A DNA stretch of 28,593 nucleotides, from NCBI GenBank assembly GCA_964510585.1, contig CAZECW010000054.1, positions 1 through 28,593 of the forward strand, written 5' to 3'. Within the stretch, counting starts at the first letter, position 1, and each line of letters starts with the position of its first letter. This document shows, in pieces, positions 141-27,401 of the stretch. The stretch is from an uncultured archaeon. GTDB taxonomy: Archaea > Asgardarchaeota > Jordiarchaeia > Jordiarchaeales > Jordiarchaeaceae. The notes beneath the pieces are model-generated. The model had not been told where the DNA came from and made no database searches. It was given only the letters and a program-made list of their open reading frames with translations. The position numbers and the translations under genes were made by a program.

Positions 141-248
141 AGGCAAACAAAAATAGTTAAATAAAAAACCTTTTCCAATATATGTGGGCAAAAAATAAAA
201 ATAGCTAAACAGAGATTCTATTATTAGATTAAGACCGGAGGAAAGCAA

Positions 249-785
249 ATGAAAAGCCTAGGGTTCGTTTTCAAAATAGTCGTAGTGGGTGACGGAGCAG
301 TAGGAAAAACTTCACTCATAAAACAGTGGACAGAGGGCTCATTCAGAACAGACTACATTATGACCATAGGTTCGAATTTTGCTGTTAAAAGTTTGGTTAT
401 TGATGATAAGCCTGTTAAGTTGCAGATTTGGGATTTGGCGGGGCAGCCGCATTTTAGTGATGTTCGGGTTTTATTTTATAAGGGTGCCATGGGTGCAATG
501 TATGTTTACGACGTGAGTCGTACTGATAGTTATGATAATGTTCTTAATTGGGATAGAGAGTTGACTAATATTTGTGGTCAGATCCCAAAGGTTTTGCTCG
601 CGAATAAGGTGGATTTGAACGATCAGCGTAAGGTTAGTTCTGAGATGGGTAGTGTTTTGGCAGCCAAGTTGGGCGATGCTCCATATTTTGAAACTAGTGC
701 GAAGTCTGGTGTTGGTGTGAATGAGGCTTTTGAGAAAATTGCCCAGCTTGTGTACGAGTTAGCTAAGAAGAGGCAGCCCGCCTAA
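249..785 (+). CDS. Rab-like small GTPase (Ras superfamily)
   Basis: G1 GDGAVGKTS, G2 YIMTIG, G3 WDLAGQ, G4 NKVD, G5 ETSAK. GGAG upstream of the ATG. No C-terminal Cys prenylation motif. Confidence 0.96.
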   Translation: MKSLGFVFKIVVVGDGAVGKTSLIKQWTEGSFRTDYIMTIGSNFAVKSLVIDDKPVKLQIWDLAGQPHFSDVRVLFYKGAMGAMYVYDVSRTDSYDNVLNWDRELTNICGQIPKVLLANKVDLNDQRKVSSEMGSVLAAKLGDAPYFETSAKSGVGVNEAFEKIAQLVYELAKKRQPA

Positions 786-790
786 AATTG

Positions 791-1297
791 TTATTTTTTG
801 AAGCCCTTTTTTGGTTGGCTGTTTCTATATTCGTTTTTTGTTAAGCTATTGTTTTTGGGTTTTTTTTTGTGGCATCTTATGCATTCGAATGCTAGGGGTT
901 CACCTGTTTCGTTTAAGCACAGAGCGTCGCATTCACCAAGTTTTCCGTCGCCGCATATGTGTAGGGCTGTGATTTTAGAGGTGTTCGCGCAGTGGTAACA
1001 TTCGTATGCGTACTCCACATTGGACACCCTTTTTGAACTGTTGAGCGATAAAACGTATTTTTCTATGAGTATTCTTCCGCACACTCCACATGCGTAGATT
1101 ATTTCGTCATAAATTACTGTGGTGGGACATCCACAGTTGGGGCATTTTTTATGAGGGGTTTTGGTGTGGGCGCCTAAAAAGTTTTTAGCATTTAATTTTT
1201 GGTGCCAAGTGCACCATCTGCATATTTCATATAGGATGCTTTCCCATTCGGATTGTAGATTATTTGGGAGGTGTTTTGCATTATGGCTTTTCTCCAC
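791..1297 (-). CDS. Multi-CxxC zinc-ribbon/zinc-finger protein, function unknown
   Basis: CRWC, CPNC, CGVC, CYHC, CIRC plus CDALC in 168 aa. GTG start, with an in-frame stop 3 codons upstream. Confidence 0.75.
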   Translation of the reverse strand: MEKSHNAKHLPNNLQSEWESILYEICRWCTWHQKLNAKNFLGAHTKTPHKKCPNCGCPTTVIYDEIIYACGVCGRILIEKYVLSLNSSKRVSNVEYAYECYHCANTSKITALHICGDGKLGECDALCLNETGEPLAFECIRCHKKKPKNNSLTKNEYRNSQPKKGFKK

Positions 1298-1541
1298 ATC
1301 ATATTAACCCATATGTGGAGCTTTTACACGTTGTTTTGTTCACTTGATCCGGTGACTTATTTTGGATGTTTTGGACTTATAAAGACCACAACTTCTGAAG
1401 GGAAAATGATTTCGTCCACGCTCGGTTCCTTTTTATCCTATAATTTTAGTCCAAATGGTGATGTGAGGCGCTTTTTAATAAATGGACTAAATTTGGGGTT
1501 TACTTTTGGCTCAAATTTTTTGTTTTTGCTTGCTCATCGTA

Positions 1542-1889
1542 TCATTTAGGGAGTGTGCTTTTTTGTGTGGGTTTAAAGTTTTGTTTAGGAGTTGTGGCTG
1601 GTTTTTTGGTGGTGGGTGGGCGTCCCATTTTTCTTAGAGCCCAAGCTGCTTTTCTTTGAACTTTTATGTCTTTATCGTTTAGGGCTTTTTTTAGTGGGTT
1701 TAGTGCTCTAGTATCCGCCAATTCTCCAAGGGCTCCAGCTGCGGCCCAACGCACTAAGGGGTTTTCGTCGTTTAGTGCTTGGATTAAGCTTTCAACAAGG
1801 TTTCTCCAGCATTCAATGTATTGTATAAATTTTGGCGTCCCCTTTTCTTGGTTTTCCACCTTTTTCTCGGTGAATGATTCCGTTTTCAT
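1542..1889 (-). CDS. HEAT-repeat (PBS lyase-like) protein
   Basis: Two repeats, LIQALNDENPLVRWAAAGALGEL and LKKALNDKDIKVQRKAAWALRKM. ATG at 1889 (MKTESF) with GGAG ~10 nt upstream is preferred over the overlapping TTG at 1982. Confidence 0.88.
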   Translation of the reverse strand: MKTESFTEKKVENQEKGTPKFIQYIECWRNLVESLIQALNDENPLVRWAAAGALGELADTRALNPLKKALNDKDIKVQRKAAWALRKMGRPPTTKKPATTPKQNFKPTQKSTLPK

Positions 1890-1917
1890 TTTTTCGGTTC
1901 TCCTCAAAATTTGATTC

Positions 1918-2859
1918 TTATTCTTCGTTTTCTTGTTCCCAAAGAGTGTCTTTTGCGCTTTTTCCTGTTCTTTTTTTATCAATATTCAGAAGCTGTCTTA
2001 GTTCTTTGTTCTCTTTGGGGATTCGGAGGATGTTTTTGGATTCCCTTTCATATGTTAGTTTGCTTCTGTTGGTGTTTTGGTTAGTTTTTGTGTTAGTGTT
2101 AGTTGAGTAGACTTTCTCTATTTTTGTGGGTGTTTTGTTTCTTCTTGCGAAGTATGCTTTTTTGTAAGTATCTTCGTTGTGGTTGGAGGGATAACTGTAG
2201 TTGTTTGGGTTGCGTTTGGGGTTGTTTTGATGATTGTTATAATTTGTGTCTTGGGATAGGAATAATTGGTTTTGCTGATGATTTGTTGCTATTTGTTGGC
2301 GTATTTTTTTGAATGCTGCAATGGTGATTATCGAGGGAATCAGTATTAGAGCTATCAGTTCTAAGGCTGGGGTTTGCATATATTGTGGTATGGGATAAGA
2401 GCCTTCAGTGAGGAAATAGTATGCAAGTATTGCAGTGATGGATATTGTGGATATGGGTGTTAATCTTAGGGCCCACTTCATTTTTCTTTTGGCCAGTGCG
2501 GCTACGGTGACTGTTATCATAGTTGAAGCGTATAGGCTTATAAGAAGCCTTTGTGTTGCATGTGTTTCTGTCCAGCCGGGAAGGGCGCTGTAAAACACTG
2601 CGTGTACTGTGAAGAAAAGGAATACTCCCAGGGCGAACCTCCAGTGCTTTTTATAAAAATTTACTGTATTGTTTATGAGCCAGCGCACCAAACGTGTCTG
2701 ATCTCTGAGCATGTAATAAAGCAGGAAATCATGTCTAACCCAGAGGAGGCATAGACAAAAAATGTAGCCTAAGATAAGTATTATCACTATCACTAAGACT
2801 GATTGAAGCAGCGATGCGATGTTGGATAAGAAGTTTTCAAACATTTCCCTAACCCTCAA
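1918..2859 (-). CDS. Polytopic membrane protein (about 5 TM) with long N/Q/T/K-rich hydrophilic C-terminal tail
   Basis: Several hydrophobic stretches in the first ~185 aa, then a low-complexity tail. Same strand as, and close to, its neighbours. The start may be the ATG of MFENF. Confidence 0.8.
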   Translation of the reverse strand: MRVREMFENFLSNIASLLQSVLVIVIILILGYIFCLCLLWVRHDFLLYYMLRDQTRLVRWLINNTVNFYKKHWRFALGVFLFFTVHAVFYSALPGWTETHATQRLLISLYASTMITVTVAALAKRKMKWALRLTPISTISITAILAYYFLTEGSYPIPQYMQTPALELIALILIPSIITIAAFKKIRQQIATNHQQNQLFLSQDTNYNNHQNNPKRNPNNYSYPSNHNEDTYKKAYFARRNKTPTKIEKVYSTNTNTKTNQNTNRSKLTYERESKNILRIPKENKELRQLLNIDKKRTGKSAKDTLWEQENEE

Positions 2860-3029
2860 ACTAGACCAGTTTCCGAGTGGGAACCCTCAGATTTTCCACC
2901 ATGTGTTTAGAAGAGGGGCAGATATGGGGGTTTCCGCAATTGTTTATGATCTCTCTCTTCTTCGGTGAAACTAGATTTGGGTTTTCCGGAATGTAAATGT
3001 TGGGAAAGTCTGCGCTTATGGAGTCTGAT

Positions 3030-5318
3030 TTAGTCTTCGTCTTCTTGTCCCTCCCCTGTTTCACTTGGCCCGTATAAGTCACCCTCAAAATTTTTGTAAA
3101 TGATTTCTCGGCTTTTCCTTAGACGCATGAAAAGTATCGCGCTTCCCACAAACCCGGAACCACTCATTGCGAGAACAATAGGCGTAGTGTTGCTTCCGTT
3201 CTGGTTAGAGCTTCCCAAAGAGAGGCCGAGTAGCGCTTGGGGCTCTGAGTTATAGTCTTCTCCCTGAGTTACCACACTAATTGTTTTGCTGGTGGAGACA
3301 ACAGTGTAGGATTGGTTGAAAAGAAGGAGTACTGTGTATTCGCCCAGACTCTGGGGTGTCCACTGTGCTTGGAAATATTCAGTATTGTTCATCCTGTACT
3401 CCTCTGAGTAGACTAGTTTTCCAGCTAAATCTATTACCATTAGGGTTACTGGGTCTTGGGGCTGGGGCGTGAAACTCAGCCTGCTGAAGTTTGCCGTAAT
3501 TTGGAGGGTGCTTCCCAGTACAACCTGTCCATTTTTGGCGTCGGTTTCAAGCCCGGGCATTAATAGGTGGACTGCGAACTCCAGGCCTCTAGTCACCGAG
3601 TCAACGGTTATGTTGCCTGCATAGGTGCAGAATATGGTATAAATCCCCCTGGTGCTTGGAGTCCAGTTGAGGAAAAACTGACCCGAGCTGCTGGTGTATA
3701 TAATGTGGCTTACGGGGTGACTGTTGGGATCATAAATGGTTACATTTATACTTACAACTTCTTGGGGAGGCTGATAATTAAGTGTCAGCTGTCCCTCAAC
3801 GGTAACTGTGTCCCCTACATAGATTAAGCCTCCGCCTATACCTGCGAGATTTACTGAGAGACCTGCCTTCATCTTTACGGTGACTTGAGTGCTTGTCCAG
3901 TTCTTGGGCAAACCATTGTAGTCTCTAATCCACGCTACTACTTCATAAACTCCCATTTTTTGGGGGAACCATTGGGAGGCAGCATAGCCCGAACTATTGG
4001 TAAAAACGTATCCTACCAGAGTGTACAAGTCGGGATTACTGGTGAAGGATGCGTTAGGATACTCTAACTTGTTTAGTACACTCCACCGAAGTAATATATT
4101 TGAAGCTGCATTGCCCTCTACAGTTACACAGGAGTTTAGAAGAACTCCGCCTTCACCTAGATAAATGGTGCTGGGATTGGCTGTGAATTCAGTTATTCGG
4201 TAATCAGTGGGTTGAACTGTGAAGGGTTCAATGAAGAATATCTGTCCATCAGTAGCGTTTATGGTGTAGCTGAGGCCTGAAATTTGTGGTATTTGGAATG
4301 AAGTGTAAACTGGCCCGCTACTACTTGTGAGTACTTGGTCTGTATGAGCTATGTTTTGGCCGTCGTCGACTACTGTAATGTTAAGAGTTACTCCTCCATA
4401 ACGGGTTAAATTGAAGTTGCTGATTGCCGAGATGCTGACATTTACTGTTTCCGAAGCATTATATTTGTAAAGGTTTGGCAAAATCTGTACGCTGTAGGGG
4501 TTTTTGTTGTGTAGCCAGATTAGCGTGTTTGTCAGAGTTTGCATGAGGCTGTTTCCGTAGGGGCTTTGGCTTATGGTTGTTATGTTGTGTAGCGCCCAGT
4601 GCAACAAGTGGGGATTACTCTCGTATTGGTTGTAGATGCTAAGAAAGTAGTCGTCGTACTGGGTGAGATCCTTTGCTAGGGGAATAAGTTTGGGGGAGCT
4701 GGTTAAGGTAAGGTTATCCTCACTAAGTGGTAAGAGAATGTATCTTTGAGTAATCTCCCCATATAGGAGGCTGATGCTATAATTCACATATTGAGGATAC
4801 TGGTAAACTATATGGTAATGAACATCCCAATTGTTATACTTGGTTGAAATGCTGAGCACATGGACTCCTGTCTTGTTGACGACTTCCCGAGGCGTAATCT
4901 GAGCACCTAAATGGTTCAGGAATATGTAGCCTGCGCTTCCCACGGTAAGTACTGGTTTGCCTATTCCCGCAATTATTTCAGATGCACTCTGATTTATACT
5001 TGTGCAGGAGGTGTCGAGAATTAGGACATCGAACACATCGGCTATTGTGGGATTGTTAACGAGTGTTTCTAGGTATACTTGGGTAACTGTAAAACCTTTT
5101 TGTTGGAGAACGCTTTGCCAATCGCCAAAGTAGTTGTTTGCTGGACTGGTGATTAATAGTATGTTGGGTAAATTTGACTTCTGTGTGGTTGGGTTTCTGT
5201 TAAATCCAAGGGCTATGGGATTCAGGTTGCTTAATGGTGGCTGGTTTGAGATTAATAGGAATCCGGTTAAAGCTAATAGTGATATTGTTAGTAGTGTTAG
5301 GAATGTTTTTTGCTTCAG
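3030..5318 (-). CDS. Large membrane-anchored surface (glyco)protein: signal peptide, flavodoxin/GATase-like alpha/beta domain, Ig-like beta domains, C-terminal TM and acidic tail
   Basis: The frame is open 94 codons upstream of the track's GTG (5036) to a CTG at 5318 with GGAG 10 nt upstream. The extension encodes KQKTFLTLLTISLLALTGFLLI (signal-peptide-like). Many N-x-S/T sequons, beta-rich repeats, and TM IVLAMSGSGFVGSAILF followed by RLRK. Confidence 0.85.
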   Translation of the reverse strand: MKQKTFLTLLTISLLALTGFLLISNQPPLSNLNPIALGFNRNPTTQKSNLPNILLITSPANNYFGDWQSVLQQKGFTVTQVYLETLVNNPTIADVFDVLILDTSCTSINQSASEIIAGIGKPVLTVGSAGYIFLNHLGAQITPREVVNKTGVHVLSISTKYNNWDVHYHIVYQYPQYVNYSISLLYGEITQRYILLPLSEDNLTLTSSPKLIPLAKDLTQYDDYFLSIYNQYESNPHLLHWALHNITTISQSPYGNSLMQTLTNTLIWLHNKNPYSVQILPNLYKYNASETVNVSISAISNFNLTRYGGVTLNITVVDDGQNIAHTDQVLTSSSGPVYTSFQIPQISGLSYTINATDGQIFFIEPFTVQPTDYRITEFTANPSTIYLGEGGVLLNSCVTVEGNAASNILLRWSVLNKLEYPNASFTSNPDLYTLVGYVFTNSSGYAASQWFPQKMGVYEVVAWIRDYNGLPKNWTSTQVTVKMKAGLSVNLAGIGGGLIYVGDTVTVEGQLTLNYQPPQEVVSINVTIYDPNSHPVSHIIYTSSSGQFFLNWTPSTRGIYTIFCTYAGNITVDSVTRGLEFAVHLLMPGLETDAKNGQVVLGSTLQITANFSRLSFTPQPQDPVTLMVIDLAGKLVYSEEYRMNNTEYFQAQWTPQSLGEYTVLLLFNQSYTVVSTSKTISVVTQGEDYNSEPQALLGLSLGSSNQNGSNTTPIVLAMSGSGFVGSAILFMRLRKSREIIYKNFEGDLYGPSETGEGQEDED

Positions 5319-5322
5319 TTTT

Positions 5323-5393
5323 ATTACTCTCCTTTTTTTGGTTTTCGAAAGATGAAGTGTTGAGTATATAAAGGATTACTCTCCTTTTTTTGG
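5323..5393. repeat. Perfect 19-bp direct repeat flanking a TATA box
   Basis: ATTACTCTCCTTTTTTTGG at 5323-5341 and 5375-5393 (52-bp period). Confidence 0.9.
5365..5372 (-). promoter_or_regulatory. Archaeal TATA box for the surface-protein operon
   Basis: TTTATATA on the minus strand ~47 nt upstream of the proposed CTG start, with purine-rich sequence further upstream. Confidence 0.65.
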
Positions 5394-5777
5394 GGGTATT
5401 CCAAGCAATTTTTAGTGTTTTTTGTATGTTTACAAATTTCTTTTTCCTTAAAAAAGGATTTGAGAGCTAATAATTTCTTTTTCTGTTTTTCTCAGTTTTT
5501 AAAAGGCTTTAAATGTTGATGTTTTCGGGGGGTCGGAAAAAGGGGGTGCAAAAAATGTTCAAAAATCATATATTTTTTTATATATTAATTGCACCAGGAA
5601 TAAGACGCATTTACACAATCCCTCCAAAAATTTTCCCAAAAAAATGAGCTTTGCTCAAATAAGTGAAAAACCCAAAAACTCTACAAATGGGAAACGTGTC
5701 CAAAAACATCCCCAAAAGAGACTTAATCCTGATACGCTCTCCCACTATTTTTTCAAAAAATGTTTTACGGGCTATCC

Positions 5778-7217
5778 TTATTCTATTTTTCCAAGATTTA
5801 TTTTTAGCATCTCAGGGCTCCATTTCCAAGTTTTGGTTTGCGTGTCAAAAAGTTCAAGTAGTGGTATTTGGCTGCCCTCCTGATGGCTTCTGAAAAATAA
5901 TTTATATTTTGCTAAGGGGAGAAGTGTTCTGCGAATGGCTCTCTCAAGTGGGGTTATACTGCCTAGAGGAGCTTCTAACCAGCAGGCTAATGCATTCTCC
6001 TTATTTAAGGTTCTCGTCCAGTAGATCCAAGTTTTGGGGAGTCTTTTTATAGCCACTACAAATGAATGAAGTGTGTCTGGGTCTGATTCGATTATGAAGA
6101 GTATATGCTCATTTAAGCCTATTTGATCTATTCCCAATGCGAGCTGAAGTGTTCCCATCTTCAGAAGGTTCTCCCTAGTCCTAATTATGGTGCGGGCATT
6201 GTATCCCAAATTTTGGCTCAAATCTTGCACGGTAGCATTGAAATTCTTGGATAAGGCGTCGATTAGCTTTAATTCCTTAATGGTTACGCCTCTCACTTTT
6301 CCAAGTGGAGAGGCTGGAGGGCGTTTTTTACCCATTTCTTCTGGGGAAAGAACTTTGCCCCAACCCTTGCTCAACACATTGCTGAGGTAGAGAGACCAGG
6401 CCTTCCAGTCTATTTTCCAGTTACCTTCATCCACATCGTAGAAGTCTATAGAAAAAGAACCCTCAAATGAATCGATTATCCAGATCCAGAATCTCGGAAC
6501 TCTCTTCTCAAATTCTTTGTAAACCAAGTTAACTGCTCTGGGGGGTACAGCAATGGAGAAGAAGGTGTAAAGGTCTACTCCTCCGTAGAGTTCTTGTCTT
6601 GAGAGGAGGTAGGGGCTTTTGACGTAGGCTTCTCCCTCCACCAGGATAAGCATATTGGTTAATCCTATCATGGGGTAATTTACTCTGGGAAATATTCCCA
6701 GGCGGCACCGTTCCTCAAGCATCTTTTTGCGGCGTTGGATGGTGGTGTAACTGGTATTTGTCTCGTCAGCTATCTCTTTTATTGTAATAAATATGTTGCT
6801 CCTAACTTTGTCCAGAATCTTTAAATCCTTCGCATCGAGCTTAACTCGGTAATCATAAACCATGTCCTGCAAGATTTGCCTCAACTGCTCAGAGGTTAGG
6901 CTATTTTCTCCGCCCAATCGCATATACTTGTCCAACTGTTTAAGTGTGGAAATCACCGAGGGTATGAATTCCTCACCCATTATGGTGTCTGCCCTAATTA
7001 AATCTGAGAACCTTTCCTCCTTCTCTCCGCCCGGTATTTCCCCCTTATACTTATATATGAAGAATCTTGTCAGAAGTTGCTTTTCCTCCTCGGGAAGTAT
7101 GTCCGGTAAGAACAATTGAAACTGCTCCTCAAGTGAGAGTGATTCAGGGTTTTCCACGGTTTTTAGGGGCTCCATTCCCAAAAAATTTTTGATATTCTCA
7201 AGCTCGCCCAAAAACAT
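5778..7217 (-). CDS. Tandem (duplicated) Lrp/AsnC-like winged-HTH transcriptional regulator
   Basis: Two HTH segments, ITIKEIADETNTSYTTIQRRKKMLEE and ATVQDLSQNLGYNARTIIRTRENLLKMG, each followed by an Lrp-like linker (VNYPMIGL, IDQIGL) and an alpha/beta domain. Confidence 0.75.
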   Translation of the reverse strand: MFLGELENIKNFLGMEPLKTVENPESLSLEEQFQLFLPDILPEEEKQLLTRFFIYKYKGEIPGGEKEERFSDLIRADTIMGEEFIPSVISTLKQLDKYMRLGGENSLTSEQLRQILQDMVYDYRVKLDAKDLKILDKVRSNIFITIKEIADETNTSYTTIQRRKKMLEERCRLGIFPRVNYPMIGLTNMLILVEGEAYVKSPYLLSRQELYGGVDLYTFFSIAVPPRAVNLVYKEFEKRVPRFWIWIIDSFEGSFSIDFYDVDEGNWKIDWKAWSLYLSNVLSKGWGKVLSPEEMGKKRPPASPLGKVRGVTIKELKLIDALSKNFNATVQDLSQNLGYNARTIIRTRENLLKMGTLQLALGIDQIGLNEHILFIIESDPDTLHSFVVAIKRLPKTWIYWTRTLNKENALACWLEAPLGSITPLERAIRRTLLPLAKYKLFFRSHQEGSQIPLLELFDTQTKTWKWSPEMLKINLGKIE

Positions 7218-7432
7218 CCCTCAACAACAAGTCTTACACCTACAGGAAATAAGATTTTCTAAAAAAAAACGTACATAAGCTGCGCTTCTTAGACAAAGAA
7301 CGAAAACATGTTTTTATAGCAAATAAAAAATAGTCCCAAAAAAAGGAATAAAAATGCAGATAAGTAAAAGATCTGCCGCAAGAAGGGTCTTCTGGGAGCG
7401 GGTGAAAACTATTTACACATTTTTCAACAAAT

Positions 7433-8152
7433 TCATAATAGCCTTTTAACGGCCTCTTTTAGCTTTTCCGAATCAATAATGCTAATGGGGTTCAGGTGGT
7501 AATCCTTCTTGCACAGGGCCAAAATTATCTGTGCGTCCTCCGCTTCCCGGCAACCTACCAAATCAAAAAGGGTTTCTGGACTTGTAATACCGCCAACCAG
7601 AAGTTCCCAGAAAAATTCAGCTTGCGCAGCTAAAATTCTCAGCTTTCCACGAAGAACAATTTCCCTTGACTTGTAGCGGGACGACTCGGAGATAATGTTT
7701 TCCATAAGCCAGCAGCGGGTTTTCACAATATCTACGTTTAGCCATTCTTGGTTTTTTAAATCATAGGCTGCCACATTGTGCTTGTTAATTATTTTGGCGT
7801 CTGGCAGGGATGCACAAGAAGCCACCCATCCCGTATCGAACTTCTCTACCAGTTTTTCCAAGAAATCTGATGAAACGCTTGGAGCTATGTACAATATTCT
7901 TTCGGATTTGCTGTTTCTCTCTTCTTCAAAAAGGGCTCTAAGCTCCCCTATGGCGCTCTCGGGCTCCTCTGAAACGTTCAGATCGGATTCCCATAATCTT
8001 CGGTGGGGCGCAAAAATAGCCACTTCCCTCAGAACGTCACGAGTAAGGAAACCTACTAAGAGCACTGGCCGCCGAAGTGTGAAAACAAGTTGTCCTAGCA
8101 CCGCCAGGCCTTTTTCGCTGAAATAGTTGAGGAGCCCCTTCAAATAATTCAC
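7433..8152 (-). CDS. Hypothetical protein coupled to the MglA-like GTPase (possible DENN-core-like fold)
   Basis: The GTG start overlaps the GTPase stop region; 239-aa open frame. The fold suggestion comes from by-eye pattern only. Confidence 0.75.
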   Translation of the reverse strand: MNYLKGLLNYFSEKGLAVLGQLVFTLRRPVLLVGFLTRDVLREVAIFAPHRRLWESDLNVSEEPESAIGELRALFEEERNSKSERILYIAPSVSSDFLEKLVEKFDTGWVASCASLPDAKIINKHNVAAYDLKNQEWLNVDIVKTRCWLMENIISESSRYKSREIVLRGKLRILAAQAEFFWELLVGGITSPETLFDLVGCREAEDAQIILALCKKDYHLNPISIIDSEKLKEAVKRLL

Positions 8153-8724
8153 CTAGTCTGATTCCTAATAGCTAGACGTATCATGTCCCTAAAAACTTTG
8201 TATACTCCCTTGCATTTTACGGCTGATGCGCCATAAATCGGGATAGAGCTGGGCAGTCCTAAATCCTGCCGGAGTTTTTCTGGTGTAACTGAGTTGGGCA
8301 AGTCCTGCTTATTTGCCTCGACCACTATGGGGATCTTGTTTTCTGTGAAGGCTATTAGCTCCTCGTAGCTTCTTATGTTATCCTTTAACCTATGTTCCTG
8401 TGAGTCAGCGATAAAAAGAACAACATCTGCGTTCTTGGCCACCTGTTCCCTAGTTGCCAGAAACCTCTTTTGGCCAGTAGTGGTGTGGATGTGAAATATA
8501 AAGCTATATGGGGGAAATTCTAGTTGGAAAGCTAAGTAATCCTCCCAAATGGTGCGTTCTTCGCTGGTTGAGACTTCGTAGGGTTGACCTGTTATGTTTT
8601 GGGGGAAGAGTTTCGCTATGGCTCTTAGATTCGTGGTTTTGCCTGAGGATGCTGGCCCCCAAAAGACGATTTTCACCTGTATTAGTCCCTCATTAAAATT
8701 GGTTTGCGTCTTGTCTTGTTCCAA
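8149..8724 (-). CDS. mglA: MglA-like small GTPase
   Basis: KIVFWGPASSGKTTNL, ERTIWEDY, HIHTTTGQ (MglA TVPGQ-type G3), DVVLFIADSQ, ANKQDL, GASAV. Confidence 0.9.
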   Translation of the reverse strand: MEQDKTQTNFNEGLIQVKIVFWGPASSGKTTNLRAIAKLFPQNITGQPYEVSTSEERTIWEDYLAFQLEFPPYSFIFHIHTTTGQKRFLATREQVAKNADVVLFIADSQEHRLKDNIRSYEELIAFTENKIPIVVEANKQDLPNSVTPEKLRQDLGLPSSIPIYGASAVKCKGVYKVFRDMIRLAIRNQTR

Positions 8725-8739
8725 CAGGTTTCTCCCCTT

Positions 8740-9315
8740 TTAGTCCTTCTCTCTTATCACGGCGGCGTCGAGTCGGTTCAGGACGTCCTCTATTTGCTCC
8801 TCGCTTATCTCAATGGTTTTCCTTATGTTTTCGTTGTTCTTTATATCTTCCTCGATTCTCTTCACGTACTGGGTCATCTTTGCCCTAATAAATCCTATAT
8901 TTGCTCTTTCATTGGCGAAGATTAAAAGTAGGAGTGATTTATCCTCGTTGATGTCGCTGATTTTGCAGACGTATAATTGCTTTGACTTGTACATGACCAT
9001 GGCGTTCTGGAACTCGTCAGCGCCCAAATGCTTTTCTACCTGACGTGCTACACCTGCTAGAGCTGCGCCGAGGGCTCCCGCGTTCCATGCGTTCTTTATT
9101 CTGAAGCTTCTAGACTTCGCCAGGGCCTTACCGTCGCTATCCACAAGCAATAGTCCTTCTATGTCGCCTTTTCCCAACATTCTTTTATAGGCTTCCAATA
9201 GGCTGTCGAGGGTGTCTGATAGTTTATTGGTCAAGTAAAAATGTCTTAATTTGTCTTCCTCTTCTCTTTCTTGGGTGTTAAACCAATCCTCACCGTTAGA
9301 CTGTAACTTATCCAT
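8740..9315 (-). CDS. mglB: Roadblock/LC7 (MglB-like) protein with N- and C-terminal extensions
   Basis: IEGLLLVDSDGKALA...GALGAALAGVARQVEKHLG...QLYVCKI...LLLLIFANERANIGFIR is a roadblock pattern. Lies directly upstream of the MglA-like GTPase. Confidence 0.85.
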   Translation of the reverse strand: MDKLQSNGEDWFNTQEREEEDKLRHFYLTNKLSDTLDSLLEAYKRMLGKGDIEGLLLVDSDGKALAKSRSFRIKNAWNAGALGAALAGVARQVEKHLGADEFQNAMVMYKSKQLYVCKISDINEDKSLLLLIFANERANIGFIRAKMTQYVKRIEEDIKNNENIRKTIEISEEQIEDVLNRLDAAVIREKD

Positions 9316-9392: not shown

Positions 9393-10358
9393 TTAGAGTG
9401 TTGATTGTATCAGTTGCGAGCCCTTGTAGGTCCTCACTAGCCTCCTTATTCCCTTATCAATCCTCTCAGGCTTCATCCCGAAATCCATCAATATTCTTTT
9501 TAACTGGCTAGTGTTTGGAGCATTAAACAATATCTTGGGGGAGATGACTTCGGGCCTTAGAAAAGCTTCGCGAATCGGTTCCACATCGAAGGGTTTTAAC
9601 TTCCCCTCGGAAAACATGTTTCCAATGTCTCTGTATTTTTGAACAAGTTTCAGAGCCTTTTTTGCGCCAATTCCCCTAACTCCGGGGTTGAAGTCTGTAC
9701 CTACAAGAATTGCCAAATCCACCAGTTGTTCATAGGTTATATTGTTCTGTTTAAGAACCTCTTCCAAGGTGCTGCACTCCACAATATTTTCGCTGAAATT
9801 CATGTTTCTCAGAACAGCTCTAGCTCCAAATAGAAGGGCGTCATAGTCTTGTGTGAGAACATAATCAGCCTTGCCTATTTGCGTTAAGTAGGCTGCCTGA
9901 GTTTCTCCCTCCCCGGGAGATTTTATCCAGGGAATTCCCATAGAGGTTAAAAGCTCTTGGGTTTCACCTATTATGGTATCGTAGAGTATCTCAGGCGATA
10001 AGGATAGGGTTCTGGCAATTGTGTACTCCCTGTTTCTTTGCGCCTTTCTCAGATAGCCATACTCCCTAGCTAGAGATTCTACCAGATGTTCCCTTTTACC
10101 CTTTAGCCTTGGATGAGAGCCGTCAAACACGTATATTGGTTTAATATGTCGTTCTAGCAAGTTGATAGTTCTGTAAAAAACACCATAAATGTGGGAAGTT
10201 ACGCGCCCCTCTTGGTTGAAAAGGGGGAGATTTTGTCTTCTAATTTTGGTTAAAAACTGGAACAGCGTGTTAGAAGCATCAACGGCCAACCTGGCATTTT
10301 TCAGGTCACTTAAAGGAATAGGTTTGAAACTAACAATGGAGCCCAGTTTCACACCCAC
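9393..10358 (-). CDS. fen: FEN1/XPG-family 5' flap endonuclease (divergent, PIP box truncated)
   Basis: DASN, YVFDG, EGETQ, QDYD, GTDF and H3TH GIGAKKALKLV motifs. GTG at 10358 (MGVKL) preceded by GGAGGTG. Confidence 0.93.
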   Translation of the reverse strand: MGVKLGSIVSFKPIPLSDLKNARLAVDASNTLFQFLTKIRRQNLPLFNQEGRVTSHIYGVFYRTINLLERHIKPIYVFDGSHPRLKGKREHLVESLAREYGYLRKAQRNREYTIARTLSLSPEILYDTIIGETQELLTSMGIPWIKSPGEGETQAAYLTQIGKADYVLTQDYDALLFGARAVLRNMNFSENIVECSTLEEVLKQNNITYEQLVDLAILVGTDFNPGVRGIGAKKALKLVQKYRDIGNMFSEGKLKPFDVEPIREAFLRPEVISPKILFNAPNTSQLKRILMDFGMKPERIDKGIRRLVRTYKGSQLIQSTL

Positions 10359-10419
10359 ACAAACCACCTCCAAAAACAGACCGCATAGTTAAGAACAATT
10401 TTTTGGGCAGCAGGAATGT

Positions 10420-11778
10420 TCATATTACCTCCTCCTGACATGGCGCTTGCTCCTTCTTCTCCCCAACGGTTAAGTGATTGATTGGTAGAATTTGGGATAG
10501 CTCTCGCGAACTATACTTTTCTCTATACTTTCTCCTACGTATCAAATGGTACAAGTACTCTTTACTCTGCCTTGCGTCCACCTGATTCACTACCTGAGAG
10601 GCTGTCTCCCCCACACTCACAATGAAGATTGAGGAGTTCCAAAGTCCAATTTTTTGTGCCTCCATCATCCTCTGGCACTTTACTCTGGATTCCTTCAAAG
10701 CCTTCTCTATTCTTGGTTCCAGAATTAAACTCTTTTCCTGTGACAGCGAGGATATGGCAATCCATGATGCGGGATCATTTTTCTTGAACTTTTTAGTCAC
10801 CAATTTCTCGATCGTGTCCTTAAGCTCTTTTTCAGCTTTCCTTAACTCTATATCCACATCCATAACTGGCTGCAGAAGAAGAATATATCCTAGGCTTCCT
10901 TCACCAAAATTTTCGCCAAGCAAAATTCTATCTAGGACTGGTTTTATGTCTGAGTTGTATTCCAATTCGCTAATCTCGAGCTCCTCAAAATACCTTTCAC
11001 CCAGTTCGTGTACCCGGTTGCCATCGGGAGCTAGTAGAGGCAAGTAAAGGCACCGTTCGGCCTCCAGCTCGTCACATATCAATCTTGTATCGTATCCCTC
11101 CCTCTTCAGAATTTTCCTAAGACTTTGCATCTTCTCTCTCGCCAGTTTAACAGCCTCACCGAAATCTCGGGAAGTCTCCCAAACAGAGACCAGAGTGCGA
11201 AGCTCTTTTCCCCTCCTGTAGACCTCAAAACTGAGATTGAAGCCCTTCTCCCAGCAGGATGATAGTATGGAGCTCCCAGCCCCCCTACCAGTAACTTCTG
11301 CAAACTGGAAAACCTGGAACCCTCTCCAACCAATACTGTACACTGCACAATCATCAAGAATGTAATCCGCAATTAGAGAATTGGGAAACTTCCTCTTAAA
11401 GATCCAATGGAAAGACGCCTCTCTACGCCGCCTCATGAAAAGTGTGAAAAACGAAATCCCGGCAGCTTCAAAAATTATGGTGAACATTGGATGAACTCCA
11501 TAGTGAGACGACAATCCTACAAGAGCGTAGCAGGTGTTACCTACTGCCAGTACTGTCACAACTTGGCTGCTTCTGCTAAACTTCCTATCCAGCAGAAACT
11601 TGGCCAAGAGGTAAAAAGCAAAATAAACTGCTAGAATGTAAAGAATCCCTATGGGGCTACCATTAGAGCAAGCATCCAGCCCGGTGCGAATCAACCTAAT
11701 GGCAAATGAAACACCCAAAGCTAAAGCGCACACTATGAACCCATAATATATGATTTTAAGAAGCACGGCTTCCAACAT
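10420..11778 (-). CDS. Membrane protein (about 4 N-terminal TM) with large cytoplasmic alpha/beta region, function unknown
   Basis: Hydrophobic segments in the first ~115 aa. The start overlaps the stop of the RadB-like gene. Confidence 0.82.
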   Translation of the reverse strand: MLEAVLLKIIYYGFIVCALALGVSFAIRLIRTGLDACSNGSPIGILYILAVYFAFYLLAKFLLDRKFSRSSQVVTVLAVGNTCYALVGLSSHYGVHPMFTIIFEAAGISFFTLFMRRRREASFHWIFKRKFPNSLIADYILDDCAVYSIGWRGFQVFQFAEVTGRGAGSSILSSCWEKGFNLSFEVYRRGKELRTLVSVWETSRDFGEAVKLAREKMQSLRKILKREGYDTRLICDELEAERCLYLPLLAPDGNRVHELGERYFEELEISELEYNSDIKPVLDRILLGENFGEGSLGYILLLQPVMDVDIELRKAEKELKDTIEKLVTKKFKKNDPASWIAISSLSQEKSLILEPRIEKALKESRVKCQRMMEAQKIGLWNSSIFIVSVGETASQVVNQVDARQSKEYLYHLIRRRKYREKYSSRELSQILPINHLTVGEKKEQAPCQEEVI

Positions 11779-12517
11779 CCTTAAACGCTTTTAAAAGACT
11801 AGGACTAACTGGACTTAGTCCCCTACTTGTAATCTGATAAAAAATCTCCCCTCTAATGTCTAGATAATGGTTAATAATTTCGGCCTTAAGGACCGACTTT
11901 ACAACTGTCGTTGAAAAGCGCAGAGTAACTTGGGAGAACTTGTTTAACCCCATTCCCATCGAAGGAATATTCTCCCCTTCTATCCCCTCCATGTTTGATA
12001 TCACTTGGTTTAGTATGAGCATCGCTATGTTTCTTCTTCTTCTACACAGTCCAAGCATTTCCGGCAACTGTTTCTCCACCACCTCACGATATCTGGAAAA
12101 CTGTGTATCGGGTGACAATCCCCTCCGATACTGGGAAGCAATAGTGTCCACAACTATCAATCTAGTTCTGCTGGAAACATAGGCGTCCAGCACACTGATT
12201 ATTTCGGTTTGCTCATCTAAACTCTTGGGGACGATTAGGGTTATTCTCTCTAGTGAATCATCGTCCGGAAAAATCTGCGAGAACCTTTTGAAGGAGAACT
12301 TGTTATCACCATCAATGTAAAGAGTCTGGTATCCTTCCCGAGAAAGGTTTCCCGCGGCCTGCATGGCAAGCGTGGTTTTACCAGTAGCAGCCTCACCATA
12401 GATGTGACTAATCACTCCTGTGGGTAAGCCGCCTCCAATCAAATCATCTATTGGACTCTGGGTATGTACCAACAATGCACCATTATTTCTAACCCTAAGT
12501 GAACTCAACATCACCAC
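11756..12517 (-). CDS. RadB-like / Rad51-paralog RecA-fold ATPase (no N-terminal HhH domain)
   Basis: IDDLIGGGLPTG, Walker A GEAATGKT, LYIDGD, Walker B LIVVD, ILNQV. The start may be the ATG at 12511. Confidence 0.88.
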   Translation of the reverse strand: MVMLSSLRVRNNGALLVHTQSPIDDLIGGGLPTGVISHIYGEAATGKTTLAMQAAGNLSREGYQTLYIDGDNKFSFKRFSQIFPDDDSLERITLIVPKSLDEQTEIISVLDAYVSSRTRLIVVDTIASQYRRGLSPDTQFSRYREVVEKQLPEMLGLCRRRRNIAMLILNQVISNMEGIEGENIPSMGMGLNKFSQVTLRFSTTVVKSVLKAEIINHYLDIRGEIFYQITSRGLSPVSPSLLKAFKDVGSRAS

Positions 12518-12896
12518 CTCTCCTAACCAGCATTCCCTCCCTCTCCAAATACTCTAACCTTTTTAGAACCCACTCACCACTCAAACCCAGTTTTTCAGCC
12601 TTCTCCAGAATGGCTAGAAGCGGAACTCTCCCCTCCTTTCCCAGGCTCTGAACTATTTCTTCAAACCTCTCAGTTTTAGTACACATTCCTTCAGGATTAT
12701 ATTTTCCCCCTGCCTTCTCAGCCTGCCTTTTCTGAACAATTTTTGCCGCGGCTTTCCAAGAGCCTACAACGTCCTTTTGCAAATCTGGTGCCTTCAACTT
12801 TTTACCACAACGGGGACAGGACGGCTTCGCGCTGAGAGTGGCTGCAAAGTATTGATTACAGGAAGGGCACTCAACAACCATGTACTTTCTTCCCAT
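12495..12896 (-). CDS. Zn-ribbon (DUF1922-like) protein with C-terminal winged helix
   Basis: VVECPSC...PSCPRCGK, then AAAKIVQKRQ, then EKAEKLGLSGEWVLKRLEYLEREGML. ATG at 12896 has GGAG ~9 nt upstream; ATG at 12923 is the alternative. Confidence 0.78.
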   Translation of the reverse strand: MGRKYMVVECPSCNQYFAATLSAKPSCPRCGKKLKAPDLQKDVVGSWKAAAKIVQKRQAEKAGGKYNPEGMCTKTERFEEIVQSLGKEGRVPLLAILEKAEKLGLSGEWVLKRLEYLEREGMLVRRGGDVEFT

Positions 12897-12915
12897 TTTT
12901 CTCAACTCCGGATTC

Positions 12916-15123
12916 TCAATCATCTCCCCAATTCCAAATCTCCAATCCCTTCTCTTCTCTACGGATCTTGATGCGTTCCTCCAAACTTTTTCCAATTTTT
13001 TTAACGGTTTCCACGCCCTCCATACTTGCAACCTCCGCGACACAGTGTACCATCCAGTTTAAACTACCAATGACCGATTCTAGGTCACCTTGGGAAACGG
13101 CGTGAAGGGAGCTAGCCTCCCTGATGCTCTTACCATTAATGTAGTCTAGAATCGCTAACCCCATCACTTGCGGCTGCGGTCTACCATACTCCAACTCCAC
13201 TGCACTCAAAACAAGGTCTAGGAATTGGAGCTCATCATCAATATCCTCATACACCCTACTTCTAATCATAATTCCAGTTATAGGTTTAAGGTAGAGTCTC
13301 ATAATTAATCTTCCAAAACTGGTGGGTTTAAAGGTGCCATTGGTGGTTTCCACGATTAACCCTTCATCAATCAGTTTTTTCAGAAAATTATCTGCGTTGA
13401 GGCACTGCGAAATCAAACCCCTATAGGCAGGATAATTCCTATCTACAAATTGGGCGAGCTTAATCAAGTGTCTACACAACTTTTTTTCCTCTCGTTTATG
13501 GTAAGAGCAGGTACACTGGAAGTTTCCCTCCTCATCAAAACTACAGACATTCACAACTGGCTTCTTCACCGTAGCCTCAACCTTCTTGGGCGACACTTGC
13601 ACACTCAAATTTTCGCTGTGAATTCTACCCGCTGCCTTAAACTCACTTACTTCAGAATGATTCACCACAGCGTCCGGAATGTTAAGTGAAGTTACCTGAA
13701 CAAGCGCCTCAAGGCTTAGGTGGGGATTCTTAGACTTCTCATTCCTCCACCAAAATGTTTTTTCGAAAAATTTCAGTATATCCTCACTGCTAGCTTCCTC
13801 GCATTCAAATGTTCTGAGGAGTATTTGCTCCTCAAGGTTTGGTGGATAACCAATGGAGCTCCCCACATCATCATATTTAGGCCGCAGCTCCCCATTCCTT
13901 AACTCGAAATATTTTTTCCGTATCATAAAATGATCCGCATCTGAATCGCACAGCACCACACTGTAGCCTACACTATCATAGTTAGGTCTCCCCGCTCTGC
14001 CCAATATCTGGTGAAACTGATTAGCATTCATAAGTTCAACTTCAAACTCGTCGGTAACCATCTCCACCCGGTTGTAGACATAAAAGTCCCTCAAGATAAC
14101 CAGCCGAGCTGGAGCGTCGATTCCTGCAGAGAGGGTAGTAGTACAACACACCACCTTCAAAAGCCCTCTGCGGAAAGCATCTTCAACAAGCTCCCTGGAA
14201 TCATGATTTAAACCCGCGTGGTGAAAACCCACACCCGCCCTCATCAACTCAATCAGACGTTTAGAATAGTTCTTACTTTCAGCAAAACTTGAGAGTGTTG
14301 CCTTCTCCTCCTCGGTCAAGCAACATGCAACTGAATCAACCAGTTTGCGGGCTAGACTCTCAGCATCTCTCCTATGAGCGACAAAGATAAGAGCTTGACC
14401 ATTACTCTGAACAATTCTTGAAACAAGTTTCCTTATAGCTCCAAGTTTATCCGGCTCAACCAAAACATAATTCTTTAAAGGAACAGGCCGGATGTCTGAC
14501 TCTATCAATCGGCATCCCAACCAGTCCGCTACCTCTCTGGCATTAGCTATAGTTGCGCTTAATCCAATGAGCTGCACCCTCAGCCTCTCCCTTATCCTAA
14601 TTAACACACTTTCCAGCCTTCCCCCCCTCACTCCTTCGCCCATCACATGTATCTCGTCCACAACAATGACTCGCACATCGTAGAGCCAGTTGGGATTTAG
14701 ACGAAGAAGGGAGTCAAATCTCTCAGTGGTGGTGACCAGTATGTCTGCATCCTCCAAAATATCGGGAGTGTGGTGGAAGTCTCCAGTGGATATTCTGATT
14801 CTCAAATTCAAACCTCTATACTTTCTGGCGAGTATGCCGAATTTTTCTCTGGCCAGAGCTTTCAGGGGAGCTACATAAACCGCTTTTCCGCCTTCCAGAA
14901 CCCATTTTAAGATAGCAAGTTCCCCCACCAGAGTTTTGCCACTGGCGGAAGGAGAACAAATCAGGAGATCGGCTCCCTCAAATAAACCCTCCTGAATCGC
15001 CATTGTTTGAATGGTTCGCAAATGGCTTATGCCCTGTTGCTTGAGAATCTCACGAATTTTCTCAGGCACCTTACTCTCATCCAGCCTTAAGAAAACTCCT
15101 AGACTCTTTGAACCATTCCTCAT
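12916..15123 (-). CDS. hel308: Hel308/Ski2-like SF2 DNA helicase with an inserted SWIM-type zinc finger
   Basis: SPSASGKT, DEIH, GLSAT, GVGFHHAGL, TTTLSAGIDAPA, QILGRAGRP. Insert FQCTCS...LCRH fits CxC-xn-CxH. Confidence 0.92.
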   Translation of the reverse strand: MRNGSKSLGVFLRLDESKVPEKIREILKQQGISHLRTIQTMAIQEGLFEGADLLICSPSASGKTLVGELAILKWVLEGGKAVYVAPLKALAREKFGILARKYRGLNLRIRISTGDFHHTPDILEDADILVTTTERFDSLLRLNPNWLYDVRVIVVDEIHVMGEGVRGGRLESVLIRIRERLRVQLIGLSATIANAREVADWLGCRLIESDIRPVPLKNYVLVEPDKLGAIRKLVSRIVQSNGQALIFVAHRRDAESLARKLVDSVACCLTEEEKATLSSFAESKNYSKRLIELMRAGVGFHHAGLNHDSRELVEDAFRRGLLKVVCCTTTLSAGIDAPARLVILRDFYVYNRVEMVTDEFEVELMNANQFHQILGRAGRPNYDSVGYSVVLCDSDADHFMIRKKYFELRNGELRPKYDDVGSSIGYPPNLEEQILLRTFECEEASSEDILKFFEKTFWWRNEKSKNPHLSLEALVQVTSLNIPDAVVNHSEVSEFKAAGRIHSENLSVQVSPKKVEATVKKPVVNVCSFDEEGNFQCTCSYHKREEKKLCRHLIKLAQFVDRNYPAYRGLISQCLNADNFLKKLIDEGLIVETTNGTFKPTSFGRLIMRLYLKPITGIMIRSRVYEDIDDELQFLDLVLSAVELEYGRPQPQVMGLAILDYINGKSIREASSLHAVSQGDLESVIGSLNWMVHCVAEVASMEGVETVKKIGKSLEERIKIRREEKGLEIWNWGDD

Positions 15124-18366: not shown

Positions 18367-19434
18367 TTGGACATAACCAACATTAAGGGTGTAGGACCGG
18401 AAAAAGCCAAAAAACTCATGAATGCCGGCTACAGCACAGTGGAAAGCATCGCCTTCTCCTCACCCAGAGATCTATCCCTAGACTCCGGAATACCAGAAGA
18501 AACCGCCCGAACAATTATCGCCTCCGCCAAGCTAATTATTCGCTCCAAAGAAAACACTAAGGGCGGAAAACTGGTGGAAATCCTCTCCGGTAAAGACGCC
18601 AAAAAAGTCCTGCAAAGCATGGATCACATAACCACCGGAATAAAAGGGCTCGACCGAATATTGGGTGGAGGAATAGAAACCTGTGCAGTAACAGAGTTCT
18701 ATGGACCAGCAAAGGCGGGAAAAACACAGATTTGCCACCAGCTATGCGTCACAGTACAGCTTCCCCGAGAAAAAGGAGGCCTTGAAGCACCAGCCCTCTA
18801 CATAGACACAGAAAGAACAGTCAAATATGACCACATCAAAAGTGTGGCTGAGAGATTCGGCCTGGATCCAGACCTAGCAAGTGACAATGTATTCTACGCC
18901 TACGCTATGAATAGTGAAGCTCTATACGAGCTGGTTCACAAAAATTTGGACGAGGTGGTTCAAAACAGGGGAATCAAACTTGTGGTAGTTGACTGTCTAA
19001 CTGGCCACTTCCGCGCAGAATACTGCGGCAGAGAAAGTCTACCCCTGAGACAACAAAAAATAAACAGAATTATTCACGACCTACTGAGAATTGCGGTGTC
19101 CCACGATTTAGCTGTGGTAGTAACAAACCAAGTGCACTCCCAACCCGACCTGTACGGCAAAAGCGAGAACCCCATAGGCGGACACACAGTAGCCCACGGA
19201 GTCACCTTCAGACTGGGACTGAGCACAAGAAAATACAACATGAGAACTGTAACCGTAGTGGACGCCCCCGCGCTTCCCCCAGACGAAGCCTACTTCGCAA
19301 TAACCTCCAGGGGACTAATTGACATAAACCCCAAGGATTTGAATTCCAAAAGCCCCATCACATTCCCTGGTGAAGGCGAAATAAGAGAAAGAGAAGTAGA
19401 AAGTGTGGAGGAGGCAGAAACCGTTACAGATTAG
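18367..19434 (+). CDS. radA: RadA/Rad51-family recombinase (divergent full-length paralog)
   Basis: N-terminal HhH (IKGVGPEKAKKL), LDRILGGGIET, GKTQICHQL, VQLPREKGGL, YIDTE, LVVVD, FRAEY, RQQK, TNQV, PIGGH. Confidence 0.93.
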   Translation: MDITNIKGVGPEKAKKLMNAGYSTVESIAFSSPRDLSLDSGIPEETARTIIASAKLIIRSKENTKGGKLVEILSGKDAKKVLQSMDHITTGIKGLDRILGGGIETCAVTEFYGPAKAGKTQICHQLCVTVQLPREKGGLEAPALYIDTERTVKYDHIKSVAERFGLDPDLASDNVFYAYAMNSEALYELVHKNLDEVVQNRGIKLVVVDCLTGHFRAEYCGRESLPLRQQKINRIIHDLLRIAVSHDLAVVVTNQVHSQPDLYGKSENPIGGHTVAHGVTFRLGLSTRKYNMRTVTVVDAPALPPDEAYFAITSRGLIDINPKDLNSKSPITFPGEGEIREREVESVEEAETVTD

Positions 19435-26630: not shown

Positions 26631-27401
26631 TCAATAATAGATAATGCTTGAGTCGGGCTCTATCTCATAATATAGTTTTGTGGTGTCAATTGGAAATTGA
26701 GCCTTTATCACCTGCATATAGTTTCTTAATTTTTCCCCTGCCTCCTCCACTTTAAATTGAATTATTACATCGCTAAGCTGAGATAATATGGCCCTAAACT
26801 TGGTTTCATGGGCGTCCATATTTAACATGTAGAAGGCCAGATCACCGTAATGCTTGTGGAAACGTATGACTCGCCTATAAAATCTTGCAACTTCCTCCTC
26901 GGGTACTCCCATAGAGAGATCGGTTAAGCTTCCAAATATCCAAATAGCCCACGAGTCTAAAGGCAAGCTTTCTCTAACACTCCTCATAAGGGAAAACAAC
27001 CTGTCAGTGTCAAAGGGTTCATCCAGAGTATAAACCTCTTTCCGCAAATTTAATCTTTCATTAGGGGGCTGGCCAGAAAAACAGTCAATAATCCTTATCC
27101 TATCAAAATTAATAAACTCCTTACTACTTTGAACCCCTTCTCCCTTGCGCCAAGAAGACGTCGCCATAAAAAGTAAATCCTCAACTGGCCTAGCATAGTC
27201 CACTATTATCAAATAGAATTCCCTTTTGCTTGCGATGGGCATACTTAAGTTTATAAACTCCCATTGTCTGAAACCGGTCTGATGAAGTATTAAAACTATG
27301 GAATTACTTAAAATTCCCCCACCTAAACGCTCATCTAACTTTTGTATGCCGGTACTAATCAAACCATACTTAATTGAATTGCTACTTGAAGAAATGTCCA
27401 A
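26631..27401 (-). CDS. KaiC/RAD55-like RecA-fold protein with degenerate Walker A
   Basis: ISTGIQKLDERLGGGI, then HQTGFRQW where GxxGxGKT is expected; IIDCFS, LSDVIIQF, YMQVIKA. Confidence 0.8.
   Translation of the reverse strand: MDISSSSNSIKYGLISTGIQKLDERLGGGILSNSIVLILHQTGFRQWEFINLSMPIASKREFYLIIVDYARPVEDLLFMATSSWRKGEGVQSSKEFINFDRIRIIDCFSGQPPNERLNLRKEVYTLDEPFDTDRLFSLMRSVRESLPLDSWAIWIFGSLTDLSMGVPEEEVARFYRRVIRFHKHYGDLAFYMLNMDAHETKFRAILSQLSDVIIQFKVEEAGEKLRNYMQVIKAQFPIDTTKLYYEIEPDSSIIYY

Follow-up and report, generated by a model that had tools for sequence, protein, structure and literature searches.

Within a Rab-like small GTPase gene of an Asgard archaeon, the third codon positions change abruptly from A/C-rich to G/T-rich, and the strand-skew step centred on this switch has the same polarity and reach as the step at the oriC of the lineage. 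New in this pattern are the two-armed footprint shared with oriC, a hypervariable core of about 30 bp and a substitution spectrum that is directed towards keto bases. We see an about even chance that the switch marks a fixed site without ORBs from which DNA synthesis is primed bidirectionally; its footprint would then be the long-term mutational record of two-way priming at a fixed site. The window analysed here is a whole contig of 28,593 nucleotides from a 3.78-Mb draft genome of the Freyarchaeia/Jordarchaeia, in which genes were called with a simple in-house caller.

The switch in the GTPase gene

The gene that hosts the switch (positions 249 to 785, plus strand) encodes a protein of 178 amino acids that matches the Ras family above the cut-off (Pfam PF00071, 174.8 bits, E 1e-51). 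This match confirms the intact, uninterrupted GTPase frame described in an earlier sequence-only reading, and the G1, switch-I Thr, G3, G4 and G5 motifs are all visible in the translation. A C-terminal cysteine prenylation motif, as in eukaryotic Rab proper, was not found, and the last 60 residues contain no cysteine. Orthologues share 97-99% identity in three sister genomes and 76% in the complete genome CP147778, while the closest paralogue within the genome has 63% amino-acid identity.

Recounting gave exactly the earlier figures, with 29 of the 40 third positions in codons 1 to 40 being A or C and 3 of 40 in codons 41 to 80. After codon 40, A/C-ending codons account for 22 of 138 sense codons (third positions T 70, G 46, A 11, C 12). 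The best single split is at codon 40 (Fisher p 3e-11) and splits at codons 35 to 42 are almost equal, so that the border extends over about 8 codons (nt 351-377) and is not a single base. The earlier concern that such a switch might be common by chance was addressed by permuting synonymous codons within the gene: the observed likelihood ratio of 24.9 lies far beyond the maximum of 10.6 obtained in 5,000 permutations.

The footprint consists of a core and two arms. The core (351 to 377), as defined by the best splits at codons 35 to 42 and by an alignment of five orthologues, comprises codons 35 to 43 of the switch-I region ending in T-I-G. It is of mixed composition and its synonymous bases differ between orthologues. 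To its left, the plus strand is A/C-rich from 141 to 350, the inner end of an arm (29 of 40 third positions A/C) that is short inside the window because the contig begins at a repeat. In sister genomes, this arm extends about 2 kb further upstream through divergently transcribed genes, and the upstream minus-strand genes (sister loci L022 and L023) have a third-position keto skew of -0.5 to -0.7 on the plus strand. To the right, about 85% of third positions are G or T on the plus strand in the inner part of the arm (378 to 785), as given by third-position counts and orthologues. The outer part (786 to 5560) fades, with keto skews of 0.51, 0.42 and 0.22 at third positions on the plus strand, and third-position composition thus bears out the G/T lean to about 5560 that had been noted before. 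Since this outer part overlaps converging minus-strand genes (791-1297, a HEAT-repeat gene at 1542-1982, 1918-2859 and 3030-5036), its skew is partly the ordinary effect of their 3' ends. In a 96%-identical strain (runs X4 and X6), all 11 differences listed at 377-776 are G>A or T>C, against the direction of the skew.

As the sequence-only reading had suggested checking, the orthologues switch at the same codons, namely within codons 35 to 43 in four other genomes of the genus. In CP147778, the switch is retained despite different neighbours on both sides of the gene and is the strongest intragenic one in 400 kb, whereas GTPase orthologues of the sister family lack it. An assembly chimera or one recombination event joining the sequence at nt 369 was among the causes proposed earlier, and a multi-copy repeat does lie at the contig start, 108 nt upstream of the gene. 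This explanation is refuted by the same-codon switch in four independent genomes, by single contigs from two other studies that span 141-6000 without a joint, and by about 200 similar steps across the genome.

Steps across the genome

When a step is defined as a change of more than 0.5 between 40 third positions on each side, the genome contains 198 sharp A/C-to-G/T steps and 19 in the reverse direction, while shuffled sequences give 0 and 2, respectively. Strictly inside genes, 44 strong steps are A/C-to-G/T and 5 are reversed. The proposal of kilobase-scale keto skew with sharp borders is supported with a correction: only the A/C-to-G/T borders are sharp, and the units are two-armed footprints of about 4 kb, not blocks. 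If all nucleotide positions are used, 34 steps of oriC size are present in 3.4 Mb of the present genome, with 107 above 0.4, and 7 steps as strong as oriC were counted in 1.15 Mb of CP147778, where two-armed sites occur throughout the complete genome. Host genes and their neighbours carry arms of equal strength, whichever way the neighbours are oriented, and the arms fade within 3-5 kb; their decay to zero by about 4 kb is equal for spacings of 4-8, 8-14 and >14 kb to the next step. The sister family has similar steps at lower density, and four other Asgard lineages have hardly any in samples of 20-60 kb.

Steps within genes favour conserved residues (mean percentile 0.69, p 3e-4), and the genes that carry them are better conserved than others (88% versus 77% identity, n 8, p 0.004). 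Among ABC proteins, 8 of 10 genes in which the Walker-B motif is followed by Gly have a step, compared with 0 of 10 in which it is not. All five small GTPases sampled from CP147778 rise at T-I/L/V-G, and in the present genome the switch-I step is weak in most small-GTPase paralogues. This recurrence at equivalent protein motifs of paralogues would fit selection on mRNA structure or codon use, either through pairing of the A/C arm with a G/U arm or through a translational pause at switch I. Selection on RNA structure had also been listed as a candidate cause, but the folding test gave no signal: folding was no better than in arm-matched synonymous resamples (mean z -0.05 to -0.32), and the Rab site lay within one s.d. 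Moreover, the arms reach other transcripts and non-coding DNA, their polarity would be free under such selection, and the orthologues of the sister family are without the switch, which makes this explanation extremely improbable.

Many steps are located at the ends of transcription units and are stronger on the 3' side. The G/T content of coding strands is 0.33 at transcription-unit ends versus 0.45, with 0.53-0.56 at starts, and the A/C enrichment at the ends relaxes within about 40 nt past the stop codon. A footprint of transcription, in which the non-template strand becomes rich in G/T owing to antisense read-through or a cryptic promoter that fires both ways, is consistent with this genome-wide gradient along transcription units and with a divergent gene pair located 120 nt upstream of the Rab core in the sisters. 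It also has a precedent in unicellular fungi, where opposite skews at gene ends likewise form a gradient along transcription units into the flanks (McLean and Tirosh 2011, PMC3315797); the fungal skews differ in being of opposite sign (C at the 5', G at the 3' end), restricted to GC and free of sharp intragenic switches (PMC3315797). Against a transcriptional origin, the coding strands lean towards A/C and not G/T, divergent junctions average merely +0.02 to +0.04, the arms are equal in host gene and neighbours whatever their orientation, and the switch travels with the gene between genomes in which its neighbours differ. We consider such an origin very unlikely. This also applies to antisense read-through from the converging operon, which had been proposed for this gene: in the complete genome, the switch is stronger although other genes surround it.

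The canonical origin as a positive control

CP147778 contains three perfect ORBs upstream of orc1 at 1,639,072-1,640,013, and at this oriC there is an A/C-to-G/T step of -0.25/+0.31, which has faded by 5-8 kb. ORB clusters in two genomes of the sister family are associated with steps of -0.20/+0.24 and -0.27/+0.28, while the ORB origin of a more distant Asgard archaeon is flat. Ranked among gene junctions, with a window size that differs between genomes, the oriC junction is 3rd to 4th of about 1,050-1,085 in CP147778 and 2nd of 163 and 1st of 87 in the sister-family genomes. The oriC step of CP147778 exceeds those of all 31 other long divergent gaps. Calculated over all positions in this genome, the Rab step (0.70) is larger than that of oriC (0.57-0.61), which is sixth in 1.15 Mb. 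A true origin thus leaves a short two-armed footprint in this lineage, and short arms are no argument against initiation. Dispersed replication starts, one of the causes considered in the sequence-only reading, have therewith gained a positive control that falls short of proof. The three oriC controls represent one orthologous locus, and an Orc1-bound origin is possibly also a roadblock or a break site.

The Rab site resembles the skew switch at bidirectional origins of bacteria and archaea in being a strand-symmetric A/C-to-G/T step that is independent of gene orientation, and a strand switch of rNMPs also occurs at archaeal oriC (PMC12639248, PMC13136892). With the ORB/orc1 origin of its own lineage, it shares polarity, size and a reach of about 4 kb. 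The differences lie in its surroundings and number, because it has no ORB and no nearby orc1, is located inside coding sequence and has tens of equals per genome; furthermore, its skew fades within kilobases, whereas the replichore skew of an oriC would persist. In CP147778, the Rab gene is found at 2.72 Mb and the orc1 genes at 1.64-1.68 Mb, all three orc1/cdc6 genes being within 1,636,716-1,640,013 and 1,681,404-1,683,791. Allowing one mismatch, no ORB was detected in the present assembly or near the Rab gene of CP147778; a lone ORB-like match in CP147778 is present at 287,378. Depth along the assembled contigs is flat. The present assembly also yielded no orc1/cdc6 gene, while all five congeners have orc1/cdc6 and ORBs, and this gap is probably due to an assembly that is 96% complete.

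The chromosome-scale skew of CP147778 is weak, with borders at about 0.07 and 2.0-2.7 Mb, away from the ORB/orc1 origin, so that an origin call based on GC skew would miss it. This chromosome-scale skew had been read as bidirectional replication (PMC11291895).

Substitutions, core turnover and mismatch editing

Single-lineage synonymous changes were compared with codon-matched neutral regions in about 220 kb aligned across four genomes. On the G/T strand, A>G (1.59), C>T (1.33), A>T (2.95), G>T (1.42) and T>G (1.49) are raised relative to neutral regions, while C>G (1.48) does not reach significance. Not raised are G>A (0.83), T>C (0.80), G>C (0.79), T>A (0.98), A>C (1.05) and C>A (1.00), and total divergence in the arms is not raised either. 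Two-parameter fits with the better neutral baseline favour fixation bias over added mutagenesis (lnL -2428 versus -2465 and -2081 versus -2177), while under a simpler neutral baseline the order of the two models reverses for A/G; the choice of baseline decides whether the bias is placed in mutation or in fixation. The composition of four-fold sites did not separate transition-only from all-change models, and isoleucine codons speak for biased change from A to T in the G/T arms but are fitted well by no model. A decay of the skew was only apparent, as it vanished once a small invariant class was allowed. A stationary model that allows a few invariant sites matches the data no worse than a decaying one, so that active maintenance of the skew is possible.

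Synonymous turnover is about doubled at the centres of the sites. Among the three sisters, variability reaches 0.31-0.47 in the 5 codons to either side of the centre versus 0.19, with flat controls, and the result holds at 13 of 15 sites (amino-acid-matched p 4e-6). At the Rab core, 8 of 15 synonymous sites are variable among the three sisters, compared with 0.20 in the remaining gene. In the cores, sites with transversions or multiple states reach 30% versus 10%, and transversions are about threefold above background.

These data bear on a break or strand-invasion hotspot with keto-biased gene conversion, which we rate as rather improbable. Here, the core would be cut or invaded and repaired from another chromosome copy or strain, with heteroduplex tracts of 0.3-4 kb on each side that are resolved unequally, because NucS cuts G/T-type and not A/C-type mismatches. 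Cut alleles would be replaced, leading to fast turnover of the core, and sites would last only where the protein sequence freezes them. Such a hotspot overlaps with two-way priming, since a D-loop also primes synthesis, but its bias would be one of fixation and not of mutation. The rapid turnover at the centre is as expected of a recombination hotspot. Forward rates that are up while back rates are down would also suit it, with fixation bias fitting best under the better baseline but not for A/G under the simpler one. Arm lengths that are independent of spacing resemble tract lengths, and the position of sites at conserved residues (p 3e-4), in well-conserved genes (88% versus 77%) and at the same motif in paralogues (Walker-B then Gly, 8/10 versus 0/10; GTPases, 5/5) points in the same direction, as do GRINS, which tie keto skew to gene conversion in NucS-using Streptomyces (PMC8256042). 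On the other hand, conversion alone does not predict the footprint at oriC, and a pure keto fixation bias does not predict raised G>T and T>G. In four genomes, a comparison of low power, neither incongruent sites nor shared identity tracts were in excess in the arms. At the median, second DNA matches to the cores within the genome are no better than those of control windows, and neither a nuclease motif at the cores nor an Argonaute in the present or the complete genome was found.

Between the sisters G001 and G004, 113 of 729 windows have at most one difference. These near-identical stretches suggest recent exchange, and they are not enriched in the arms.

NucS was found in 11 of 11 genomes of the order and MutS-I in 0 of 11. 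EndoMS/NucS cuts G/T, G/G and T/T mismatches best, T/C and A/G less, and C/C, A/C and A/A hardly (PMC4838380). This specificity lies on the same axis as the skew, and we infer a link between them. In Streptomyces lacking NucS, the unedited replication errors are A>G and C>T on the leading strand (PMC11109965), and the polarity of the skew matches these errors. Other NucS-only Asgard lineages have few or no steps in small samples.

The same specificity would also suit a stall or convergence site, in which it is the A/C-rich strand that is newly synthesised, with tracts of synthesis terminating at the core. At a fork barrier, a bound protein or a transcription end, repeated trimming and refilling would be edited by NucS only, and A/C, A/A and C/C errors would survive. 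The changes raised on the A/C strand are indeed those with mismatches that EndoMS leaves uncut, a sharp edge with a gradual approach fits a barrier, and coding strands become richer in A/C towards transcription-unit ends (0.33 versus 0.45 G/T) and relax about 40 nt past the stop. We nevertheless judge such a site to be unlikely, since oriC would then have to be a barrier instead of a start, two arms are present at sites all through the complete genome, and the intragenic cores lack a binding motif.

Search for a site determinant

No DNA word of 5 to 8 nucleotides was found in a scan against local step size, and a motif search on 42 cores against codon-shuffled nulls was likewise negative. Duplex stability is flat across the cores. 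The word CC-N7-GG, derived from the ABC genes, failed at other sites, and CCATAGG in the Rab-like gene is not retained in the sisters. Argonaute was found neither in the present genome nor in four of five congeners, CP147778 being among those without it.

Other features of the window

The 31 of 40 A/C-ending codons reported for codons 1 to 40 of radA were confirmed. The statement that the window is A/C-rich elsewhere holds for about 10.4-25.2 kb but not for 5.8-9.3 kb, where third positions still lean towards G/T on the plus strand. An AC-to-GT flip described near 25260 is present in a one-armed form only: the A/C tract ends after the transcription unit and the next gene leans towards A/C again.

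Positions 1-140 are occupied by a 140-bp repeat with 85 matches on 68 contigs, 55 of them near contig ends. It has terminal hairpins and a TGTCAA end in 69 copies, and is missing at the same place in the sisters. Judged by its end sequence, it looks like a non-autonomous element of the IS200/IS605 family; no transposase gene was seen upstream of eight internal copies. A second short intergenic repeat (7264-7330) has about 21 copies in the genome and dozens in the sisters. Repeats near the GTPase gene are not switch sites.

The minus-strand ORF at 791-1297 is Cys-rich, has no Pfam match and is variable between sisters, with copies of about 70% identity elsewhere; the sister locus L022 carries a transposase-like ORF (11491-12663) in its place. 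The regions 8149-9315, 9393-15123 and 18367-19434 encode an MglA-like GTPase with a roadblock-like neighbour, a FEN1-like nuclease, a RadB-like ATPase, a Hel308-like helicase and RadA; in this cluster, RadA was assigned by Pfam and the other members by eye from their translations. For a KaiC/RAD55-like protein (26631-27401, minus strand), the Pfam match is weak and confined to the N-terminus, and a Walker A motif is not evident. An Rfam search of the window gave no match.

Proposed two-way priming at fixed sites

If DNA synthesis is primed both ways at the core, the strand that runs 5' to 3' away from the site, which is the new strand of leading type and the template of lagging type, would gain G and T, while its partner would gain A and C. 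The asymmetry would arise in the first 2-4 kb after priming and not at the steady fork; it is assigned to the first kilobases because oriC shows the same fading distance and a longer gap to the next switch does not extend it. The core of about 30 bp, in which changes of all kinds are more frequent, would be the place where primers are set, a strand is broken or a strand invades. As the Rab site has no ORB, priming there would be Orc1-independent, by a RadA D-loop, by a break or by an R-loop. A reported preference of RadA and RecA for GT-rich DNA is not counted as evidence here. With NucS as the sole mismatch editor, G/T, G/G and T/T mismatches would be cut and A/C, A/A and C/C left uncut, and such editing would most simply account for the G/T versus A/C axis. 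Coding constraint at conserved protein motifs probably freezes whatever local feature the sites need.

Several observations speak against this reading. The sites are marked by neither a DNA motif nor a stability feature; the occurrence of many at transcription-unit ends, with greater strength on the 3' side, points to transcription; the chromosome-scale skew has borders that agree neither with oriC nor with fully dispersed starts; and arm divergence is not raised, with fixation bias being preferred under the better baseline but not for A/G under the simpler one.

Comparison with known systems

Skew N-domains of mammalian genomes have sharp upward jumps in G+T skew and are not known to have sharp downward ones, and the jumps are read as initiation sites. 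The steps described here are similarly sharp in the upward direction (198 versus 19 downward), but their arms extend over about 4 kb instead of megabases, and the decay does not run linearly to the next jump or scale with spacing.

Archaeal replication from dispersed RadA-primed sites is known, with published RadA-dependent initiation being random and not fixed to sites (PMC13136892, PMC12639248). Recombination-dependent replication in Thermococcales and Haloferax is Orc1-independent and RadA-primed at many places, as proposed here; initiation is described as random and without a strand signal, whereas the present sites are fixed across the genus (PMC13136892, PMC12999951).

As in the Rab gene, the GC and TA skews of GRINS are intense and correlated at third positions of working genes, on a kilobase scale (PMC8256042). 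GRINS are commonest in Streptomyces (PMC8256042), a genus in which NucS likewise edits mismatches. GRINS are duplicated regions of 0.3-1.4 kb that are more than 80% identical to a paralogue, while the Rab gene has no such copy (63% at the amino-acid level), and in contrast to GRINS, the skew at the Rab site is two-armed, of fixed polarity and continuous across gene borders. A literature search of incomplete coverage retrieved no description of such steps, and the searched passages of a 2026 survey of archaeal skew mention neither Asgard archaea nor local steps (PMC12999951).

Implications

On either two-way priming or conversion, synonymous sites, codon bias and origin calls from GC skew in these genomes are not readable in the usual way, and the usual reading of skew is unsafe because the ORB/orc1 origin of CP147778 lies off the chromosome-scale skew border. 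If the steps are conversion hotspots, they would reveal a G/T-versus-A/C drive tied to NucS-type repair, which may also explain GRINS.

It is a tentative and rather doubtful extension of two-way priming that Freyarchaeia/Jordarchaeia routinely replicate from tens to hundreds of fixed ORB-less starts beside one oriC. Such starts, some in conserved genes and many at transcription-unit ends, would constitute a dispersed, eukaryote-like programme that is readable from sequence, a proposal to which we attach the same degree of doubt. Eukaryotes use many motif-poor origins, and Asgard archaea are their closest relatives. If the steps mark starts of synthesis, candidate sites could be mapped at nucleotide scale in a lineage that is still uncultured.
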